A stretch of DNA of 64,000 nucleotides from a virus (lineage: Duplodnaviria > Caudoviricetes): positions 1,338 to 65,337 of IMG/VR virus record IMGVR_UViG_3300044716_000140; one strand, written 5' to 3'. Below the pieces are notes generated by a model. That model searched no databases, was not told the origin of the DNA, and saw nothing but the letters and a program-made list of their open reading frames with translations. Position 1 is the stretch's first letter; every line of letters begins with the position of its first letter. A program made the translations under genes and the position numbers. Positions 1-59,761 of this stretch are shown here, piece by piece.

Positions 1-213
1 ATCAGCGGCGTTAACCTCCAAGCCTCCAGCATGGAAATCAGCGGTGCAGGTTCAACTGCGCTTTTCGTTGGTGCTGCTGGTTCAGTTGGTATCGGAACTG
101 AAACTCCTTCCACTGCGCTCGACGTTGTTGGATCGGTCACTGTTTCGCAAAACATCATCGGTTCTGGAACAAGCACACTTACTGGGTTCATCCTCGGTGG
201 TGGCACGTTCTAA
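1..213 (+). CDS. C-terminal part of a virion fibre protein, truncated by the window start
   Basis: The frame is open from base 1 (ISGVNLQASSMEISG...). It contains a GSVGIGTETPSTALDVVG repeat typical of phage fibres. Probably the continuation of the ORF starting at 63399. Confidence 0.7.
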   Translation: MSGVNLQASSMEISGAGSTALFVGAAGSVGIGTETPSTALDVVGSVTVSQNIIGSGTSTLTGFILGGGTF

Positions 214-36859: not shown

Positions 36860-37158
36860 TGGGCGGTTACAATCTCAAGGAAGCTGGATGCGCCAAAGTC
36901 ATCGATAACACTCCCGATGACTGGAAGGAAGCAACGCTTGCAATCATAAAGGCAATGGCATCCAGCGGCATGACATTCCATGCAGAAGATGTCCGCAAGC
37001 TCGCTGGTGATCCACCTAACCATCCAAACGCATTCGGTGCTATATTCAATGTAGCGCAACGATTGAAGTTGATCGTCCGTGTTGGTGACATAATCGCCAA
37101 ACGCGACAACGCACACGCAAGGAGAATTTCGCTTTACAAAGGCGCACGTTACGCTTAG
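36856..37158 (+). CDS. hypothetical protein, winged-helix-like
   Basis: FHAEDVR...PPNHPNAFGAIF...HARRI. Confidence 0.65.
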   Translation: MMGGYNLKEAGCAKVIDNTPDDWKEATLAIIKAMASSGMTFHAEDVRKLAGDPPNHPNAFGAIFNVAQRLKLIVRVGDIIAKRDNAHARRISLYKGARYA

Positions 37159-37161
37159 ATT
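37133..37161 (+). promoter_or_regulatory. promoter of the replication operon
   Basis: TTTACA-17 bp-TAGATT. Confidence 0.55.
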
Positions 37162-37181
37162 AGTGTAGCTTCAGTTGAAGC

Positions 37182-37284
37182 GCATCGCTTAGAACCCGAT
37201 GTCAAAAACACCCAAACAATTTCCCTCGCCTCATGGCATTGTCGTTTGATAATGCGGTTCTACTTGAGGCGAGGGTTTTCTTTT
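37182..37284 (+). promoter_or_regulatory. structured leader/attenuator (kissing pseudoknot plus terminator-like hairpin)
   Basis: Hairpin loop TAGAACC (37190-37196) is complementary to GGTTCTA (37256-37262), which lies inside the stem CCCTCGCCTCA/TGAGGCGAGGG, followed by TTTTCTTTT. Confidence 0.7.
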
Positions 37285-37287
37285 ATT

Positions 37288-38100
37288 ATGCAGTTTAAAA
37301 TAGAACAATACGAGAGATGCCAGACAATGGCAGAAGGATCAATCGAGGATCACTTGATTGGAATTACCAAACCGACAATTGATCGGTTATTGAAGATGGA
37401 CAATCCCGGCGATTGTATCGCGCTTTACACATTTTACGCCTACACTCGCAAGTGGCAGAAAAACACGGCAGTTCATGCAACATCAGATTATGCCATGACT
37501 GGTCTTCAGTGGGGTCGAGATAAGTTCACAAAAGCAAAAGCTCAACTCAAGGAAGCTGGATTCATTGAGGATGTCCAACGCAAGGATGCCAGCGGTAAAG
37601 TTATCGGTTGGTATGTCGGAGTTCGCTTTGCACAGAACGCAACTCTTGGCAATTTCCATGTTGCAGAGCTACCAGAAAACCACCCTACGGGTTTCCCACA
37701 GGGTGGTGAATCCACACTGTGGAAAAACCGCACCCAAATACCTATTACTAATAACAAAATACCTAATACTAATAATGAAATACCTAATAATATAGAAACA
37801 CAGCAGGATTTATTACCTTTACCAACTGGTAAAGGCAATAAACCCACCAAGGCAACACTTAAAAAACCAGAGTCAGTTTCTCAACAAGTTTGGAATGATT
37901 TCCTCACACTCCGCAAAGCTAAACGCGCACCACTTACAGAAACCGCATTGAACATGATTGAAAAAGAATCTGAAATTGCAGGCTTGACACTCAATGACGC
38001 TCTGACAGAATGCGTCACCCGTGGATGGCAATCATTCAAAGCTGACTGGGTAAAACCCAAGCAGCAACAGGTTGAGATGACATACTCGCGGGCTTGCTAA
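37288..38100 (+). CDS. replication initiator (lambda O-like architecture)
   Basis: N-terminal HTH-like region, central repeats, C-terminal VWNDFLTLRKAKRAPLT domain; directly upstream of DnaB. Confidence 0.75.
   Translation: MQFKIEQYERCQTMAEGSIEDHLIGITKPTIDRLLKMDNPGDCIALYTFYAYTRKWQKNTAVHATSDYAMTGLQWGRDKFTKAKAQLKEAGFIEDVQRKDASGKVIGWYVGVRFAQNATLGNFHVAELPENHPTGFPQGGESTLWKNRTQIPITNNKIPNTNNEIPNNIETQQDLLPLPTGKGNKPTKATLKKPESVSQQVWNDFLTLRKAKRAPLTETALNMIEKESEIAGLTLNDALTECVTRGWQSFKADWVKPKQQQVEMTYSRAC
37688..37792. repeat. putative replication origin: imperfect palindrome plus three 21-bp-period AT-rich repeats
   Basis: GGTTTCCCACAGGGTGG..CCACACTGTGGAAAAACC, then AAATACCTAWTA repeated at 37736, 37757 and 37778. 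Confidence 0.6.
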
Positions 38101-42432: not shown

Positions 42433-43548
42433 ATGAGATTCCATATATTAGGACTACCGCACACTGTTACCAGCAAAGAGTTTAACGCCTGCGCTTACAC
42501 ACAGAAAGTAGTTAAGTTCGGGAAGATGATGACATCCCGTGGGCATGAAGTCATCCACTATGGGCATGAGGATAGCGTTCTGGATTGCACGGAACACGTT
42601 AGCGTATTGACCAACGATGACTTTGCCAAAAGCTATGGTTCACATGACTGGCGCAAGACGTTCTTCAAGTTTGATACCAGCGACCACGCCTACCAGACCT
42701 TCTTCACCAATGCCATCCGTGAAGTAGGCAAGCGCAAGCGCAAGCATGACTTCATTTTGCCATTCTGGGGTAGCGGTGTTCGTCCAGTCTGCGACGCGCA
42801 TCTAGACCTTATCTGCGTTGAACCCGGCATAGGCTACGCAGGAGGTCACTGGGCGCGTTGGAAGGTGTTTGAATCATATGCCATATACCATGCGTATTGT
42901 GGATTATCTGCCGTTGGTTCATGCAAGCAGGATTGGTATGATGTCGTCATCCCGAATTATTTTGATGTCGCAGATTTCGACTTCAATAGCGCGAAGGAAG
43001 ATTATTTCCTCTACCTTGGCAGGGTCTACAGCGGCAAAGGTGTTGATGTAGCTATACAGGCTACGGAACGAGCAGGAGTCAAGCTGGTCATCGCGGGACA
43101 GAAAGAGGAAGGATACAAGCTGCCTTCGCACGTCGAGTATGTAGGATACGCTGACGTTCCAACGCGCAAGAAGCTCATGGCAGGCGCAAGAGCATCGTTC
43201 CTACCATCGATGTATGTTGAGCCATTCGGAGGTGTCCAGATCGAGAACCTGCTATCAGGCACGCCTACCATCACCACTGATTGGGGTAGCTTCGCGGAAA
43301 ACAACCTGCATGGTATCACTGGCTATCGATGCCGCACTATGGGTGACTTTGTGGATGCTATCAAAAACATTGATTGCATCAACCCGTGGGACTGCAAGCG
43401 ATTCGGCAACAACTTCACGCTGGAGAAGGTTGCACCAATGTATGAGAAGTATTTCAGCGATGTCCTTGATGTCTACGAAGGCGCAGGATGGTATGCTGAT
43501 GGCAACGGAATTGATTCCATGACGAGGTTCTATCCAAGCATTATATGA
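42433..43548 (+). CDS. GT-B (GT4-like) glycosyltransferase
   Basis: FLYLGRVYSGKGVDVAI...LPSMYVEPFGGVQIE...GTPTITTDWG. Confidence 0.92.
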   Translation: MRFHILGLPHTVTSKEFNACAYTQKVVKFGKMMTSRGHEVIHYGHEDSVLDCTEHVSVLTNDDFAKSYGSHDWRKTFFKFDTSDHAYQTFFTNAIREVGKRKRKHDFILPFWGSGVRPVCDAHLDLICVEPGIGYAGGHWARWKVFESYAIYHAYCGLSAVGSCKQDWYDVVIPNYFDVADFDFNSAKEDYFLYLGRVYSGKGVDVAIQATERAGVKLVIAGQKEEGYKLPSHVEYVGYADVPTRKKLMAGARASFLPSMYVEPFGGVQIENLLSGTPTITTDWGSFAENNLHGITGYRCRTMGDFVDAIKNIDCINPWDCKRFGNNFTLEKVAPMYEKYFSDVLDVYEGAGWYADGNGIDSMTRFYPSII

Positions 43549-48154: not shown

Positions 48155-48398
48155 ATTTAACTTGCCAGAGCAGGAGTGGGATTTTAAATACGCTTGTGCT
48201 GGATTGGATGCGCTATTGACACTGAACGACATTGATCAGGAGCTTCGGTCAGCGGTGCGTTACCATACTGGCGAATTTACGCATTACATTGACGAGGAAA
48301 CTGGCGAGCGGAAGTTTTGCTGCAATGATACATTGCATCATGTTCGCAAGGTTATAAACGAAATGGTTCACGAACGAAAATTGCCAGAACTAATTTGA
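48132..48398 (+). CDS. conserved phage hypothetical protein
   Basis: KATLEFNLPE...IDQELRS motif. Confidence 0.65.
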   Translation: MEAKATLEFNLPEQEWDFKYACAGLDALLTLNDIDQELRSAVRYHTGEFTHYIDEETGERKFCCNDTLHHVRKVINEMVHERKLPELI

Positions 48399-51238
48399 CA
48401 GCAGATGTTAAAAACGCAATCGCCTTGGCAGAAAAAATTCGTGCCGAGGTTGATAACGCGACTGATGAAGATCGCGGGATATTGCTTGCCGCAAAGTATA
48501 TTATAACAAATGTTTCAAATACAACTGGCAACTTTAAATTAGACCTACCATTTGCAAAGAGTGTTGTATTGCAGTTTGTAAACGAACTGCTTAACAAAGA
48601 TCAATTTGAGGCAGCGGCAACTGTCTTGTGGGGGCAACAAGTTTACGACTGGCGACCACAATCTTCGATGGATACATGGAGATGCTTATTTGATCATGAT
48701 AAGTTGCTTATTCAGGGTGCTGGAGCGATGGGAAAAACATTTGGCGCAGCGGCATGGTTTCTGCTGGACTGGATGCGTGACCCTCACTACACTTGCATTA
48801 AAGTTGTTTCACTTACTGCTGAACACGCTCAACGCAACGTATTTGCTGCTATTAAAAAGTTTTATACGACTGCATTGGTAAGACCAGAATTTGATGGAAG
48901 CGAAACGCTTGTAAAAAGCATACAGGCAAATAATGACTCAAAGAACGGAATTCATCTTGTAGCTATCCCAAAGGGTGATAGCGGAACTGGAACTTTGCGT
49001 GGTTTCCATCCAAGTCCAAGAGCAGGCAAGCCACATCCAACATTTGGACAAATGTCCAGAACTCATGTTGTGCTGGACGAAGCGGAAGAAGTTCCTGCTG
49101 GCGTTTGGGAAGGTTTGCAAAACATCTTGTCCGCAGCGGATACGGAAGGCGCAAAAGGACGCATTAAAATTTTTGCTGCGAGCAACCCAAAGGATAGGAC
49201 AAGCGAGTTTGGCAAGCGGTGCGAACCAGAGCGAGGTTGGGGATCGGTGGATTGCGAGGATGACTTTGAATGGGAGTCACGCGATGGTTGGCACGTATTG
49301 CGCCTTGATGCCGCACGATGCGAAAACGTCATTGAGCAGAAAATTGTTTTTCCCGGCTTGCAGACTAACGAAGGCTACACGGCATACGAAGCGAAAGGAA
49401 GAACCGCTGAATATTACTGTGCCGACACAGAGACGGAGGTTTTATCAAAGCGTGGATGGTTGAAGCACGATCAACTTAATGTTGGAGATACGATTTATAC
49501 TGTAAATATTGATACTGGTTTTGCAGAGTGGCAAGATGTTAATGAGGTATTTGCGAAACATTATGATGGAAATCTTGTGTCTATGGAGAGCCGCCACATT
49601 TCTGCTCTTGTTACTCCAAATCATAGGTGGGCGACAACAAATAAACAGATACTCAAAACAAAGAAAAATTTTCGCTTTAAAATCAAAGAAACATCAAATC
49701 TTGCAAAGCATGACATGATTCCGCTTTGCAGAAAATCTATTGATAATGAAAAAATATATGATGAAGATTTTGCAGAACTAATTGGATGGATTGTTACAGA
49801 TGGAAGTTTTAGTGAATACAATAGAGTTTTTATTTACCAATCTCAAAAAGCAAATCCACATAAATGCGATAAAATACGAGAACTTTTAATTAAATTGAGA
49901 CATCCATTCCAAGAAGAAGAATATAATGGAATGATTCATTTCAAATTTGCGAATAATCTTGGAAGAATGGTTAAAGAAGCAATTCCTAATAAAAAACTAA
50001 CAATTAATTTTATTGAAAAGCTAAACAATGATGGAAGGCGCAAACTTTTCGAGTCAATGGTTCTTGGTGATGGTGGAATTCAAGGTGGTAGCACAAAATA
50101 CATTTGCACCAAAGATAAAAAGCAAGCTGAAGTTTATTCAATTTTGATAAACAGACTTGGGATGGCAAGCCGAATACACGAAAGGTTTGTTAAAGGTAAT
50201 TTTATCAAACAAACAAATTATCAATCTAAAGGCTGCACAATGTATTATGTTGATGCATTGGAAACCAAAAATGTTCGTGTTCAATACATGAACATGAAAG
50301 AAGTTCCATACTCTGGAGTTGTTTGGTGTCCAAGAACAGACAACCAAACATTTTTTGCAAGAAGGGATGGAAAGTGTTATTTTACTGGGAACACAATGGC
50401 GCGTGGTTGGTTCCCGCAGGAAGGTATCAGCATGGCAATAATTACACCATCGATGCTTGATAACGCGATGGGTAACGTGCGGTTTATTGGGCCTGTAGTG
50501 CCTCTGGCAGCGTTTGACTTGGCATTGGAAGGCAATGATAGCGTTGTGTGTTCTTTCGGAAGATTTGGACTTTGTGATGGGTGGACACCGATGAGTGGTC
50601 AGTTTATTCCTTTCAAGACTCCGAGAACAGTATTGCAACTTGATTCGCAGATGACATTTCCGAAGGCGGCAACGCTGGAGCAAACTTACAACATTATTAA
50701 GTTTTGTAAGAACATGAAGATTTCTCCGAACTGGTTGTGCGTTGACCGAACTGGAAATGGCGCAGGAATCCATGACTCGCTGAAAACCTTGTTTGGTGAT
50801 GAAGTTCTTGGCGTAAACTATTCTTGGGCGGCAACGGACACGCATATCCTCGGAGATGATTCACAGAAGGCGAGCGAGCTTTACAACGGAGTGGTTACTG
50901 AATTGTTGTTTGGATTATCCAAGTATCTTGAGTTTGAATACCTCAAAATATCACCGGGATTCCGCAACGATCAACTTGTGCGTCAAGCAACTGGAAGACG
51001 CTATATGCAAAAAGGTAAGGGCATGGTGCGTGTAGAAAGTAAAAAAGATTATGTTAAGCGGACACGGCAACCATCACCAGATGCTTTGGACTCGCTTTCA
51101 ATGCTGGTATTTCTTATGCGACAACGCGCAGGCTCAACTGCGACTATGGTAGAAAACAAAAAAGAAACTCCGCGATTAATGGATCGTGAAATGTTCTCTA
51201 TCGTGGATAAGATACAATTTATTGATTTTAGCGAATAA
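48395..51238 (+). CDS. terL: terminase large subunit with intein (622 aa after splicing)
   Basis: Walker A GAGAMGKT, Walker B VVLDEAEE, ASNP; nuclease AFDLALEGND, VDRTGNG, SPDALD. Confidence 0.92.
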   Translation: MTADVKNAIALAEKIRAEVDNATDEDRGILLAAKYIITNVSNTTGNFKLDLPFAKSVVLQFVNELLNKDQFEAAATVLWGQQVYDWRPQSSMDTWRCLFDHDKLLIQGAGAMGKTFGAAAWFLLDWMRDPHYTCIKVVSLTAEHAQRNVFAAIKKFYTTALVRPEFDGSETLVKSIQANNDSKNGIHLVAIPKGDSGTGTLRGFHPSPRAGKPHPTFGQMSRTHVVLDEAEEVPAGVWEGLQNILSAADTEGAKGRIKIFAASNPKDRTSEFGKRCEPERGWGSVDCEDDFEWESRDGWHVLRLDAARCENVIEQKIVFPGLQTNEGYTAYEAKGRTAEYYCADTETEVLSKRGWLKHDQLNVGDTIYTVNIDTGFAEWQDVNEVFAKHYDGNLVSMESRHISALVTPNHRWATTNKQILKTKKNFRFKIKETSNLAKHDMIPLCRKSIDNEKIYDEDFAELIGWIVTDGSFSEYNRVFIYQSQKANPHKCDKIRELLIKLRHPFQEEEYNGMIHFKFANNLGRMVKEAIPNKKLTINFIEKLNNDGRRKLFESMVLGDGGIQGGSTKYICTKDKKQAEVYSILINRLGMASRIHERFVKGNFIKQTNYQSKGCTMYYVDALETKNVRVQYMNMKEVPYSGVVWCPRTDNQTFFARRDGKCYFTGNTMARGWFPQEGISMAIITPSMLDNAMGNVRFIGPVVPLAAFDLALEGNDSVVCSFGRFGLCDGWTPMSGQFIPFKTPRTVLQLDSQMTFPKAATLEQTYNIIKFCKNMKISPNWLCVDRTGNGAGIHDSLKTLFGDEVLGVNYSWAATDTHILGDDSQKASELYNGVVTELLFGLSKYLEFEYLKISPGFRNDQLVRQATGRRYMQKGKGMVRVESKKDYVKRTRQPSPDALDSLSMLVFLMRQRAGSTATMVENKKETPRLMDREMFSIVDKIQFIDFSE
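49418..50392 (+). mobile_element. intein (325 aa) with LAGLIDADG homing endonuclease, in TerL
   Basis: Y|CADTETEVLSKRGW; VTPNHRW; IGWIVTDG and MVLGDG; VWCPRTDNQTFFARRDGKCYFTGN|T. Confidence 0.93.
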
Positions 51239-54974: not shown

Positions 54975-55130
54975 ATGAGAAAAAAACAACAAGGATTGTG
55001 GGCTAACATCCACGCAAAACGTGAACGCATCGCTGCTGGTAGTGGCGAGAAAATGAGGAAAGTTGGAAGCAAAGGCGCACCTACCGCAAAGGCAATTAAA
55101 CAATCAGCGACAACAGAAAAAAAGAAATAA
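54975..55130 (+). CDS. 51-aa basic phage protein (absent from the ORF track)
   Basis: GLWANIHAKRERIAAGSGEKMRKVGSKGAPTAKAIKQSA, a recurrent motif in aquatic phages. Confidence 0.75.
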   Translation: MRKKQQGLWANIHAKRERIAAGSGEKMRKVGSKGAPTAKAIKQSATTEKKK

Positions 55131-55131
55131 T

Positions 55132-55764
55132 ATGGAAAAGGTAGCGGGTGTATATGAAATTGAAATTGCTGGCTATAAATACTATGGCAGCAGCATCAAT
55201 ATCTACGCCCGTAAGCAAAACCATATAACAAAACTGCGATCTGGAATGCATCGCAATCTGCGACTTCAAAGATGTTTTAATAAATATGGAGAAGATGCAA
55301 TGGCATTCAAGATACTTGTTCTTTGTGATGAAGAATCTGTTCTTGATGAAGAACAAAAATATTTAGACGAAAATATCGGTAATGATAATTGTCTAAACTT
55401 TTGCAAAAGCGCATCTGCTCCAATGGCTGGAATTAAATTTTCAGACAACCATAAAAAGAAAATGTCAGAATCGCAGATCAGAAATAAATACATTTTTTAT
55501 TATGCGTGCGGCAAAATTGAATCATTTGATAGTTTAAAACTTGCTGGTAATAAATTCAGAGTCAGAAGTTCAATTGTTTCTCGATGGTTTAAAAGAAAAG
55601 ACCTTGGAAGAAATCACGGAATACTGCAATCCAACAATATTATAAAAGCTGAAAAAATTGGAGATGAATATATTGTTTTATTACCATATAAATACAAACA
55701 AGAACCTTGGAAAATAGCTGGAGCAACAAGCAAAACTCAATATTATAGAGAAAAAAAGAAATGA
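55132..55764 (+). CDS. free-standing GIY-YIG homing endonuclease
   Basis: GVYEI...YYGSS...R...H...LQRCFNKYG...EEQKYLD; NUMOD3-like GIKFSDNHKKKMSES. Confidence 0.88.
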   Translation: MEKVAGVYEIEIAGYKYYGSSINIYARKQNHITKLRSGMHRNLRLQRCFNKYGEDAMAFKILVLCDEESVLDEEQKYLDENIGNDNCLNFCKSASAPMAGIKFSDNHKKKMSESQIRNKYIFYYACGKIESFDSLKLAGNKFRVRSSIVSRWFKRKDLGRNHGILQSNNIIKAEKIGDEYIVLLPYKYKQEPWKIAGATSKTQYYREKKK

Positions 55765-58319: not shown

Positions 58320-58895
58320 ATGAAACCTAAAATTTATTCATATTACGAAAGTATCCAGACCTTGCCGCAGGCAGAGCAATTTGCTCGCGCAAACTACTGG
58401 AAGACATCGTGGGAAAAAAATGGTTGGGATTGCGTGATGCTTAACCGCTCACACGCGCAAGCCAGCAATGCATATCAAAAGTTCATGGCAAAAATAATGA
58501 AGATGTCATTTGACTTGCCAATGGACTACCAGCACGTCTTCCCGCAGATTATCGCTCGATATTCCCGCTGGTCTGCGCTTCATGCGGCGGGAGGTGGATG
58601 GATGAGCGATTACGATGTTGTCAATATCAATTTCACTCCACACGATGCGGTCAGATTTGAATCTACTCTCAACATCGTTTCTGGAGAACCATGCTACTTG
58701 TTTTTTGCAACACGCGAGCATTGCAATGCTGTAATGAGCAAATTTATTCAAGAAGATTTTTTTGTTGACAACAGACTTCGTTTTGAATCTGAAATTCTCG
58801 GAGTAGAAGGCAAATTGTCGGATATGCTAAACCAAGTTCGACACATTGAAAAAAGTGACAAGCCAAAGTCTGAAATCATGGCATCACTCATGTAA
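58320..58895 (+). CDS. DxD-motif glycosyltransferase (GT32/OCH1-like)
   Basis: WKTSWEKNGW...RWSALHAAGGGWMSDYDV. Confidence 0.7.
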   Translation: MKPKIYSYYESIQTLPQAEQFARANYWKTSWEKNGWDCVMLNRSHAQASNAYQKFMAKIMKMSFDLPMDYQHVFPQIIARYSRWSALHAAGGGWMSDYDVVNINFTPHDAVRFESTLNIVSGEPCYLFFATREHCNAVMSKFIQEDFFVDNRLRFESEILGVEGKLSDMLNQVRHIEKSDKPKSEIMASLM

Positions 58896-58899
58896 CCAT

Positions 58900-59410
58900 A
58901 CTCATTCTGGAAGGCTTGAGGTTGGCGGCAAGAGACACTTCGCCTGTTATGGTGATGAAGTGTCTTGAACAATACTCATTCCGTATAGGAATCGGCAGTA
59001 TGGCATTTCGACATTTACGCTGCTATCTTTATCGGGCCGCACCAACACTCAACAAACACCCATTAGCAACGCCTTCGCCTATCCCGTGCAAACATTGCAA
59101 TTTTAATCGCAATATTTACCGAACTCGGAATAGCGTGTTTACCCAAATAAAAATTTGAGCGGGAAAATTGGCATGGTTACAGCATATGTTTTTCCCTGTG
59201 CGTTTCCGACAAGTAAACCCAAGGGATTCGTTGTCGCTCTCTCGATCATATTTCGCTCATCGATATAGCACCTTTGCGAGCTACTTTGGGGAACTGCGTG
59301 AGCTTCATGCCAAGTAAAAACCCGCCTTGATGGAGCAGCACCAAGACGGGTTTATTTTTACCAGAAGGGAAAATGTTTTTCGTCTTGAACCCTGCTCGAT
59401 TCAAGTAAGA
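58900..59410 (-). ncRNA. putative large structured non-coding RNA (~500 nt)
   Basis: Has its own promoter; many nested stems whose G-U pairs work only on the - strand; no credible ORF. Confidence 0.6.
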
Positions 59411-59417
59411 TGAAAGC

Positions 59418-59446
59418 AACCTACGAGACGATTGATTCTATGTCAA
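59418..59446 (-). promoter_or_regulatory. sigma70-like leftward promoter
   Basis: On the - strand: A-rich UP element, then TTGACA-17 bp-TAGGTT. Confidence 0.65.
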
Positions 59447-59500
59447 ATATTTTTTGAAAATATTTTTTGAAAATATTGTTGACAACATTTGAAAAATATT
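59446..59500. repeat. tandem 13-bp AT-rich repeats between divergent transcripts
   Basis: AATATTTTTTGAA twice, then degenerate AATATTGTTGACA and CATTTGAAAAATATT. Confidence 0.6.
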
Positions 59501-59761
59501 GCAGTCCGTAAATATCTCGGCGAGCCATTCCGTATATGGTGACTCCGTGGAAGTCAAAGAATCCACACTACAGGCCGCACAACAAGCCCAGCGTGCCGGG
59601 GCGAACAAACAAGAAACCAAGCAAGATGATCAATTTCGTGACATCACGAAAATGATATTCCTGCAAACTTGAATGTCGTTCCCGAAGTTTTCTAAACAAC
59701 GGGTCGGTTCAAGCAGAACAAAACCCAAACACAAACAAAACTAAAATAGAAAACTAAAATT

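Follow-up and report, generated by a model that had tools for sequence, protein, structure and literature searches.

A minus-strand unit in a gap between plus-strand genes

The stretch of DNA analysed here, hereafter the window, comprises 64,000 nucleotides (nt), namely bases 1338-65337 of the 65,337-nt IMG/VR record IMGVR_UViG_3300044716_000140, a tailed phage (Caudoviricetes) with a completeness rating of 100%. All its large open reading frames (ORFs) are read from the plus strand. An 866-nt gap (58896-59761), between a 191-amino-acid (aa) ORF on the left and a 397-aa ORF on the right, has on its minus strand a unit composed of a sigma-70-like promoter, a leader with two hairpins whose loops are complementary, and a long structured body (Table 1). 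That this is a minus-strand structured RNA unit appears very probable from the comparison of related sequences. More specifically, we lean towards reading it as an optional, self-contained, non-coding transcription unit, similar in kind to a moron, whose leader is an attenuator switch of the form described below. The 191-, 317-, 421- and 397-aa ORFs of the neighbourhood are without a PHROGs or Pfam family, and the tail, virion, O-like initiator and DnaB-like helicase proteins are encoded elsewhere in the genome.

An earlier note on this DNA, made by inspection of the letters, had proposed an undescribed structured, non-coding RNA at this place, with a promoter, two hairpins and complementary loops on the minus strand. 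Each of these leader elements is present where it had been placed, and the broader proposal is borne out by the absence of any Rfam match, by the failure of all six candidate frames to be kept in relatives and by covariation in the body.

Table 1. Features of the minus-strand unit and of the second leader in the window
Feature	Coordinates	Strand	Description
Sigma-70-like promoter	59418..59446	-	TTGACA 59446-59441, 17-nt spacer, TAGGTT 59423-59418; predicted start near 59411
Hairpin 1	59384..59405	-	8-base-pair (bp) stem, 6-nt loop L1 GAGCAG 59397-59392; putative anti-antiterminator or kissing partner
Small A/U-rich linker hairpin	59354..59374	-	predicted for the window in either conformer; would form the tip of the alternative long hairpin
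Intrinsic terminator (hairpin 2)	59316..59350	-	12-bp stem 59350-59321, loop L2 CTGCTC 59338-59333, UUUUU 59320-59316
Body, type A	58896..59315	-	~420 nt, 16 helices; would be reached by read-through
Lineage-specific insert with nested stems	59062..59150	-	includes 14-bp stem 59119-59088; from minimum-free-energy (MFE) fold and alignment
R1, first direct repeat copy	58972..58981	-	GAATGAGTAT; two exact copies in the window, both inside the unit
R2, second direct repeat copy	58898..58907	-	at the 3' edge of the unit
Weak hairpin with U6, candidate 3' end	58853..58893	-	in the antisense of the upstream ORF; -11.8 kcal/mol, z -1.5, 16/200 shuffles as good, not significant
Second attenuator (site 2)	37140..37290	+	TTTACA-17-TAGATT, hairpin loop TAGAACC, long terminator with GGTTCTA, U-run, initiator start codon 37289

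Paired loops that change together

A search with the 397-aa protein gave 156 related stretches, and we retained the best 80 loci; a scan for the 3' arm of the terminator added further contigs, giving a total of 48 instances (36 of them non-identical), from which 32 leaders were aligned. Among these 32 non-identical leaders there are 19 different terminator-loop cores, that is, 19 loop pairs, and in 31 of them L1 is the exact Watson-Crick complement of L2 over 6-8 nt. The sole exception, in L012, retains 5 nt and one G-U pair, and since the match is here kept through a G-U pair, the contact points to RNA and not to DNA. When L1 and L2 are combined from different leaders, only 17 of 946 combinations reach 6 nt of complementarity and none reaches 7 nt. 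The mean energy of the cognate L1:L2 duplex is -8.0 kcal/mol, and the loops vary freely across the leaders while the stems that carry them are nearly invariant. The complementarity of the loops, first seen in a single sequence, is thus genuine in being kept by covariation in 31 of 32 leaders, and the 19 compensating loop pairs offer comparative proof, of uncommon clarity, for an RNA-RNA contact beside a terminator.

The elements that flank these loops are similarly conserved. TTGAC is found in 29 of the 32 extracted leaders, the remaining three being cut off by the limits of extraction, and the fuller pattern TTGACN-16..18-TANNNT lies upstream of 27. The terminator follows this conserved promoter at a distance of ~60-95 nt; its stem is 99.2% paired across 31 distinct leaders, with one invariant U-G pair, a U-run follows it in all 32, and the hairpin has an energy of -18.4 kcal/mol on the minus strand as against -11.3 on the plus strand. 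In the MFE folds, an apical loop contains the centre of L1 in 30 of the 32 leaders and the entire L1 in 13. The stem of hairpin 1 is maintained through G-U pairs in several relatives; an alignment-based count finds it 69.2% paired, loop lengths of 6-8 nt misregistering most rows, so that folds of the individual sequences were used instead. Between the two hairpins a small linker hairpin of the type AUUUUC...GAAAAU recurs, by eye, among the relatives.

The hexamer GAGCAG and its complement occur 46 times in the whole window, where 29.2 +/- 5.5 occurrences are expected (none of 100 shuffles reaches 46). This excess may reflect codon usage, and besides the two loops no occurrence stands out.

The window holds only two convincing intrinsic terminators, each with a loop complement upstream. 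The other one (site 2) precedes the genes for the O-like initiator and the DnaB-like helicase, and its leader is present in 8 of 14 related initiator loci inspected. Three covarying variants of its loop pair exist among these eight: six loci have TAGAACC/GGTTCTA as in the window, L203 has TGAACC/GGTTCA and L213 has GTGGAAA/TTTCCAC. The recognition of the same leader design at 37182-37284 in the earlier note is thereby upheld, whereas the co-regulation with replication that it read into the resemblance is not: the loop pairs of the two sites (GAGCAG/CTGCTC and TAGAACC/GGTTCTA) are unrelated, and therefore the link between them is one of architecture alone.

A probable structured RNA body of several types

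BLAST comparisons divide the bodies into at least four types, namely A (the window and 16 others), B (14 sequences) and the single representatives C (in L083) and D (in L188). They range in size over ~365-420 nt and have in common only their first ~45 nt and motifs at the 3' end. In the type A alignment (11 sequences), 96.7% of the cells of 89 predicted pairs are paired, and 26 of these pairs have changed on both sides, compared with 16.4 +/- 2.1 in shuffled alignments (0/500 reach that number) and 2-6 in slid controls; the 26 pairs are spread over 9 of the 16 helices. The type B alignment (14 sequences) has 76 pairs, 98.2% paired, with 15 changed on both sides against 7.9 +/- 1.8 in shuffled (0/500) and 0-3 in slid alignments. 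Three of the type B hairpins are capped by GNRA-type tetraloops, one of them with a compensating change in its stem. The window sequence by itself folds weakly better than chance, with -163.5 kcal/mol on the minus strand (z -2.73, 1/100 shuffles as good) and -154.9 kcal/mol on the plus strand (z -2.32, 2/100 shuffles as good); the real support comes from the comparison with relatives.

Two structural details of the earlier note fare unevenly in this comparison. The nested stems that it described are found in the MFE fold of the window, including the 14-bp stem, but that stem is confined to an insert shared by a window-like subset: in the alignment the insert is carried by the window, L004 and L017, and outside it by L119, whereas 8 of the 11 type A members have other sequence there. 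For the helix proposed to close the 3' domain (59052-59036 with 58929-58916), 92.2% of cells allow pairing, yet none of its 14 pairs is compensatory and four are broken in some sequences.

Towards its 3' end the body of 13 of the 32 units contains an exact direct repeat of 8-17 nt, with the copies 67-81 nt apart. The repeated sequence changes between lineages and yet stays a repeat (as in the window, L017, L033, L083, L188 and L181). No complementary partner of the R1 and R2 copies was found in the window.

No conserved ORF accompanies these structures, as none of six candidate frames is kept in 10 relatives, which differ in length by non-multiples of three and have in-frame stops. A search of the whole window against Rfam 15, which includes the group I and II introns, RNase P, tmRNA, 6S, GOLLD, ROOL, HEARO, C4, pRNA and the PyrR site, yielded no match at the gathering score, the sub-threshold matches in the region being noise (best E 0.39). 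The same search on eight loci, covering units of types A, B, C and D and the L018 leader, returned just tRNAs elsewhere in those loci, and the best match below threshold was a PyrR site with 25.7 bits against a threshold of 54. ARAGORN found no tRNA or tmRNA gene in the window. The novelty claimed for the RNA thus stands after a comparison that took in ROOL and GOLLD, and we rate the body as a likely new family of structured phage non-coding RNA of ~365-420 nt, which would be an optional cargo swapped between genomes.

The orientation of these structures is reflected in their G-U pairs, which had been taken in the earlier note to favour the minus strand. Canonical pairs fill 97.0% of cells on the minus strand as against 88.7% on the plus strand in type A, 98.2% against 91.6% in type B and 99.2% against 89.6% in the leader, in agreement with that view.

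A proposed switch between two folds of the leader

The stem core CTTGA/TCAAG is common to hairpin 1 and the terminator, whose arms can therefore swap partners. In the resulting alternative, one long imperfect hairpin, the 5' arm of hairpin 1 pairs with the 3' arm of the terminator, L1 with L2, and the 3' arm of hairpin 1 with the 5' arm of the terminator. Averaged over the 32 leaders, the fold with two hairpins has an energy of -26.4 kcal/mol and the fold in which the nested L1:L2 pairing is forced one of -23.9 kcal/mol, and in 11 leaders the two lie within 0.1 kcal/mol of each other. When the transcript is folded as it stands before the 3' arm of the terminator, the MFE structure is the antiterminator in 31 of 32 leaders, with at least 10 cross pairs (median 14). 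The energy gained by the antiterminator over hairpin 1 alone is 9.2 kcal/mol for cognate leaders and 4.1 kcal/mol for non-cognate chimeras. Since each arm has two partners and each loop only one, the stems would be frozen while the loops drift together.

What the analysis establishes is the layout of the unit, its covariation, the missing ORF, the patchy distribution and, in silico, the pair of near-equal folds; transcription of the unit, the operation and triggering of the switch and the role of the body we infer along the following lines. A host-type promoter would start the RNA, and its first ~95 nt would serve as a transcription attenuator. In the terminated fold, hairpin 1 and the terminator would both form, their loops could touch and the polymerase would stop, leaving a short RNA. 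In the read-through fold, L1 and the 3' arm of hairpin 1 would pair with the 5' arm of the terminator and L2; the outer arms would then pair too, generating the long imperfect hairpin, and the polymerase would read on to make an RNA of ~510 nt, whose body of ~420 nt would fold independently. As no gene follows the body in the window-type phages, our best guess is that it acts as a free RNA in trans.

Several points weigh against this model. With respect to the switch, the zipper-like fold is poor in 5 of the 32 leaders (L018, L099, L113, L189 and L007); in L018, moreover, the stem of the terminator is flipped and hairpin 1 shows no corresponding change, whereas the loop pair of this leader is the longest and the most G+C-rich. 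This speaks for the contact between the loops as the core that is conserved. Forcing the alternative fold at site 2 costs 12 kcal/mol relative to the fold with two hairpins. No third site complementary to L1 or L2 is shared among the 32 units, from ~1.5 kb upstream to ~2.5 kb downstream where the locus reaches that far, and neither a leader peptide nor a switch signal was found. With respect to transcription, the -10 element of the window (TAGGTT) agrees with TATAAT at 3 of 6 positions and the promoter was missed by a promoter scan; the relatives possess better -10 elements. A run of at least four T follows hairpin 2 on the opposite strand too in 19 of the 32 leaders, because of which this hairpin may act in both directions and could end plus-strand transcripts. 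The reverse complement of the type A alignment folds almost equally well (-65.8 vs -68.4 kcal/mol), for which reason promoter, U-run, G-U pairs and context carry most of the weight in the strand call. Two metatranscriptome runs (shares 0.10 and 0.05) gave contigs that are without strand or ends and leave 58900-59245 uncovered; a 154-nt contig of a relative with a GTCACAA-type loop extends from 59246 across the terminator, again without strand and with DNA carry-over possible, so that these contigs speak neither for nor against transcription of the unit. The role of the body in trans, finally, is a guess.

Because of the five poor zippers, L018 and the energies at site 2, the kissing contact by itself is a serious rival, even if we hold it to be unlikely as the whole explanation. 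In such a static complex the two hairpins would always form and their loops would kiss within or between RNAs, with no antiterminator involved; the complex could be a nuclease-resistant 5' module, a processing site of the RNase III type or a handle for oligomers as in the phi29 pRNA, ROOL and GOLLD. Both loops are of 6-8 nt and fully complementary with a favourable duplex energy, as this would require, and just the loop match remains in L018. The complement at site 2 belongs to an unpaired part of the terminator, and the basal stem of that terminator does not compete with it. Kissing-loop homo-oligomers of large phage-associated RNAs have been described (PMC12286853). What a static complex leaves unexplained is the shared CTTGA/TCAAG core, the contrast of invariant stems with variable loops and the nearly isoenergetic swapped fold in 11 of 32 leaders; further, the design is always placed on a terminator behind a promoter, which fits the control of read-through. 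The kissing-loop leader of the earlier note is accordingly retained as to its complementary loops, but a near-isoenergetic antiterminator built from the loops and the shared arms is another possible use of them at this site. The kissing contact and the antiterminator may also coexist.

An accessory unit with probable exchange of its parts

By the terminator pattern the unit is present in 19 of the 80 related loci. Most other loci have a gap of ~250 nt in its place, with similarity to the window limited to 59457-59761, and the gap is a hot spot for cargo, being occupied by genes with an FGE-sulfatase domain or by glycosyltransferase-like genes in L006, L010, L018, L050, L052 and L061. In five relatives rated 97-100% complete the terminator pattern was not found (0/5), nor did BLAST with the type A or the type B unit find a match (0/5 each; types C and D were not searched for), and in four of the five the best hit of a search with a model of the leader had an E of 0.197, as against 6e-16 in the window's own genome, which served as the positive control.

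What follows the leader differs between loci. In L018 an HNH-like ORF comes immediately after the promoter and leader, whereas in L083 the order is leader, type C body, HNH-like ORF and dCMP deaminase. In L175, L181 and L188 leader and body precede a dCMP deaminase gene, with a DnaB-like gene further down in L175 and L181; the L188 contig ends after the deaminase. In this second phage group the unit runs in the same direction as the genes that lie beyond it and stands at a divergent promoter region. As the leader can thus precede an HNH-like ORF, a body or a deaminase operon, it would be a portable control device for which the body is one possible load. Further, an identical loop pair is found with bodies of types A and B, while the body of L119 is 98% identical to that of the window and has different leader loops. 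This sharing of loops between different bodies, and of a body between different leaders, points to modular exchange.

Two further observations concern these loci. The HNH-like ORF (CxxC...HH...CxxCH; L018 minus strand ~2230-2690 and L083:2200-2754) scores 17.7 bits with Pfam HNH, below the cut-off, and suggests a passenger of the homing-endonuclease type in the same cassette. In L181, at 1879-1912, just 3' of the type B body, there is a hairpin whose stem is almost identical to that of the leader terminator, in the opposite orientation and without an upstream loop partner.

A bolder and rather doubtful reading, which we offer tentatively, is that the unit forms an RNA cassette passed between genomes and marked by an address code in RNA. 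Its hypervariable loops would act as lock and key, restricting each phage lineage to the regulation of its own copy, in cis and, by way of the abundant short RNA during co-infection, in trans, and the body, in its four or more forms, would be a new class of tetraloop-rich, protein-free effector. With the same measure of doubt, this body could be made first after infection by the host polymerase and might serve, for example, as a decoy against host defence, a role that the earlier note had also suggested, or as a modifier of host RNA polymerase or RNases.

We consider it improbable that the loops serve self-recognition in the sense of immunity or incompatibility. An abundant terminated leader would then act in trans on nascent leaders of the same specificity, and the loops would be under diversifying selection against cross-talk. 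Nineteen loop variants on nearly identical stems, the nearly orthogonal non-cognate pairs and the free combination of loops with bodies, including the near-identical body of L119 with other loops, are all what one would expect of it, and precedents exist in the P4 CI RNA and IsrK (PMC4825925). Yet the two partners lie ~55 nt apart in cis, where cis pairing should win, and the surveyed flanks offer no third target; stems with two partners account for the same pattern without positive selection. There is also no sign of lysogeny, the large ORFs lying on one strand, although only some ORFs were searched for families and no dedicated integrase search was made.

Readings that the comparison disfavours

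It is very unlikely that the feature belongs to the plus strand, either as a structured 3' untranslated region (UTR) of the 191-aa gene ending at a bidirectional terminator or as a DNA element, a pair of imperfect palindromes whose central spacers match, for example for protein binding or recombination. All genes of the window are on that strand, a T-run lies past the hairpin on the plus strand in 19 of 32 leaders, the plus-strand fold has a z of -2.32, and variable spacers within conserved arms resemble the sites of recombinases. Against this, on the plus strand the invariant G-U pairs would read as A-C and the terminator is weaker by 7 kcal/mol, and it is on the minus strand that the promoter is conserved. 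In the second phage group no gene end adjoins the body and the unit is oriented as the genes downstream of it. As for a DNA element, the match in L012 needs a G-U pair, and the sites are ~55 bp apart, which is short for synapsis.

The roles proposed in the earlier note, namely a replication primer, packaging or scaffold RNA, fare worse still, and we regard an essential RNA of this kind, including an origin RNA, as having little to recommend it. In their favour, an operon for dCMP deaminase and a DnaB-like helicase begins with the unit in the second phage group, and the design of the unit resembles RNA II/RNA I of ColE1; the cumulative GC skew peak near 58-59 kb would also suit an origin. An essential RNA should, however, be present throughout, and the unit is missing, in the searches described above, from the five relatives rated 97-100% complete, which therefore disfavours all of these roles. 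To this may be added its presence in only 19 of the 80 loci, its position at a hot spot where glycosyltransferase genes or genes with an FGE-sulfatase domain stand in other relatives, and the replacement of its body by unrelated sequence types.

Finally, an mRNA for a small protein or type I toxin with a long structured untranslated part, for which there are models in highly structured mRNAs of ~400 nt such as hok and candidates in short ORFs of 33-80 aa in the region, is next to negligible as an explanation, since none of the six frames survives in relatives.

Genomic setting and possible host

Several features of the window lie beside the unit. The cumulative GC skew reaches its maximum at 58-59 kb, and the skew is negative over 59-62 kb despite the plus-strand genes. 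Many relatives, some without the unit among them, retain all or part of the segment 59457-59761 (+), which is ~300 nt long and lies 5' of the 397-aa gene. Several hairpins occur in it, as does TTGACA on the plus strand near 59480, and a structured 5' UTR for that gene is a possible reading; the alignment of 69 such upstream stretches was too gappy for folding. An 8-nt match between the body and this 5' UTR, noticed by eye, was dropped, as it is not kept in L004. Elsewhere, a LAGLIDADG domain, possibly of an intein, is found within a 947-aa ORF (48395-51238, +), and a 233-aa ORF at 55063-55764 (+) is homing-endonuclease-like.

A glycosyltransferase gene (42433-43548, +) encodes a protein with 72% identity over 95% of its length to one from the Synechococcus myophages S-CAM7 and ACG-2014f. 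This similarity is a hint, and no more, that the host is a cyanobacterium, in which case a picocyanobacterium, or that genes have been exchanged with cyanophages. The phages that bear the unit probably infect freshwater cyanobacteria. Among isolated phages there was no match to the region (blastn) or to the 397-aa protein (tblastn). In contigs of cellular genomes a 19-mer of type B had three matches without wider similarity, where our own estimate for chance is ~4, and these indicate neither a homologue nor a host.

Relationship to known systems

A full-text literature search found no description of the unit. The closest described mechanism appears to be the zipper-type attenuator cATT of pLS20, in which a long central stem-loop starts the zipper and is required for antitermination (PMC13401043). 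The two have in common a promoter-proximal leader with a weak upstream stem-loop, a central stem-loop that in the phage is a candidate, and an intrinsic terminator, together with two folds of similar free energy and a conserved sequence of the upstream hairpin (PMC13401043). They differ in that the candidate central hairpin of the phage leader is tiny, a short A/U-rich element seen by prediction and by eye, and in that complementarity in the phage involves the hypervariable, covarying loops of both hairpins, with the outer arms able to swap as well. The carriers are likewise distinct: cATT belongs to a conjugative plasmid of Gram-positive bacteria (PMC13401043), the unit to a phage, probably of cyanobacteria. 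The two sequences are not similar, and the switch of the phage is one predicted in silico. We rate the principle of attenuation in the leader as known and its phage form as new.

Regulation of phage genes by RNA is also known from the c4 RNA of P1 and P7, which we group with the CI RNA of P4. Pairing of the P4 CI RNA with seqA and seqC, two sites of the transcript that contains it, leads to premature termination, and the short IsrK RNA of Gifsy-1 acts on its own read-through form (PMC4825925). Like these, the unit would combine a regulator and its complementary target on one phage transcript, with short and long isoforms from one promoter and a leaky terminator. Unlike the P4 system, which involves a processed RNA and two target sites (PMC4825925), the unit has only L1 and L2. 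The known systems also belong to temperate elements of enterobacteria, and the unit has no match to C4 or any other Rfam family.

With respect to loop contacts, ColE1 RNA I/RNA II, R1 CopA/CopT and the phi29 pRNA are familiar cases of stable hairpins whose loops, of 6-8 nt, are fully complementary and stay so while varying between relatives. Their partner loops belong to two molecules or to copies of a single essential RNA, whereas here both lie ~55 nt apart on one RNA, one of them in a terminator, and the phage group can dispense with the unit.

In being a long non-coding RNA of several hundred bases associated with phages and metagenomes, the body recalls GOLLD and ROOL (PMC12286853). Like them, it has covarying helices, and it has several GNRA-type tetraloops; it differs in that it has no Rfam match, is smaller (~365-420 nt), exists in several mutually unalignable types and stands behind an attenuator.

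A phage moron is an independent unit between two genes, with its own promoter of the sigma-70 type and a factor-independent terminator. The unit resembles morons in being inserted between genes, in some relatives only and against the orientation of its neighbours, and differs from them in that its cargo is an RNA and not a protein gene.

Implications

The leader would extend to phages the zipper-type design, so far known in the literature we found only from Gram-positive conjugative plasmids, and the same phage deploys the design before its replication genes. The natural series of loop pairs is suited to direct testing by mutation and compensation. The favoured model of an optional, attenuated and non-coding unit raises the question of how a phage benefits from a moron without a protein. 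If the reading as an exchangeable RNA cassette is true, such units would be the RNA counterpart of protein morons and anti-defence genes, and if it is true that the loops set specificity in trans, they would constitute a natural set of orthogonal RNA switches.

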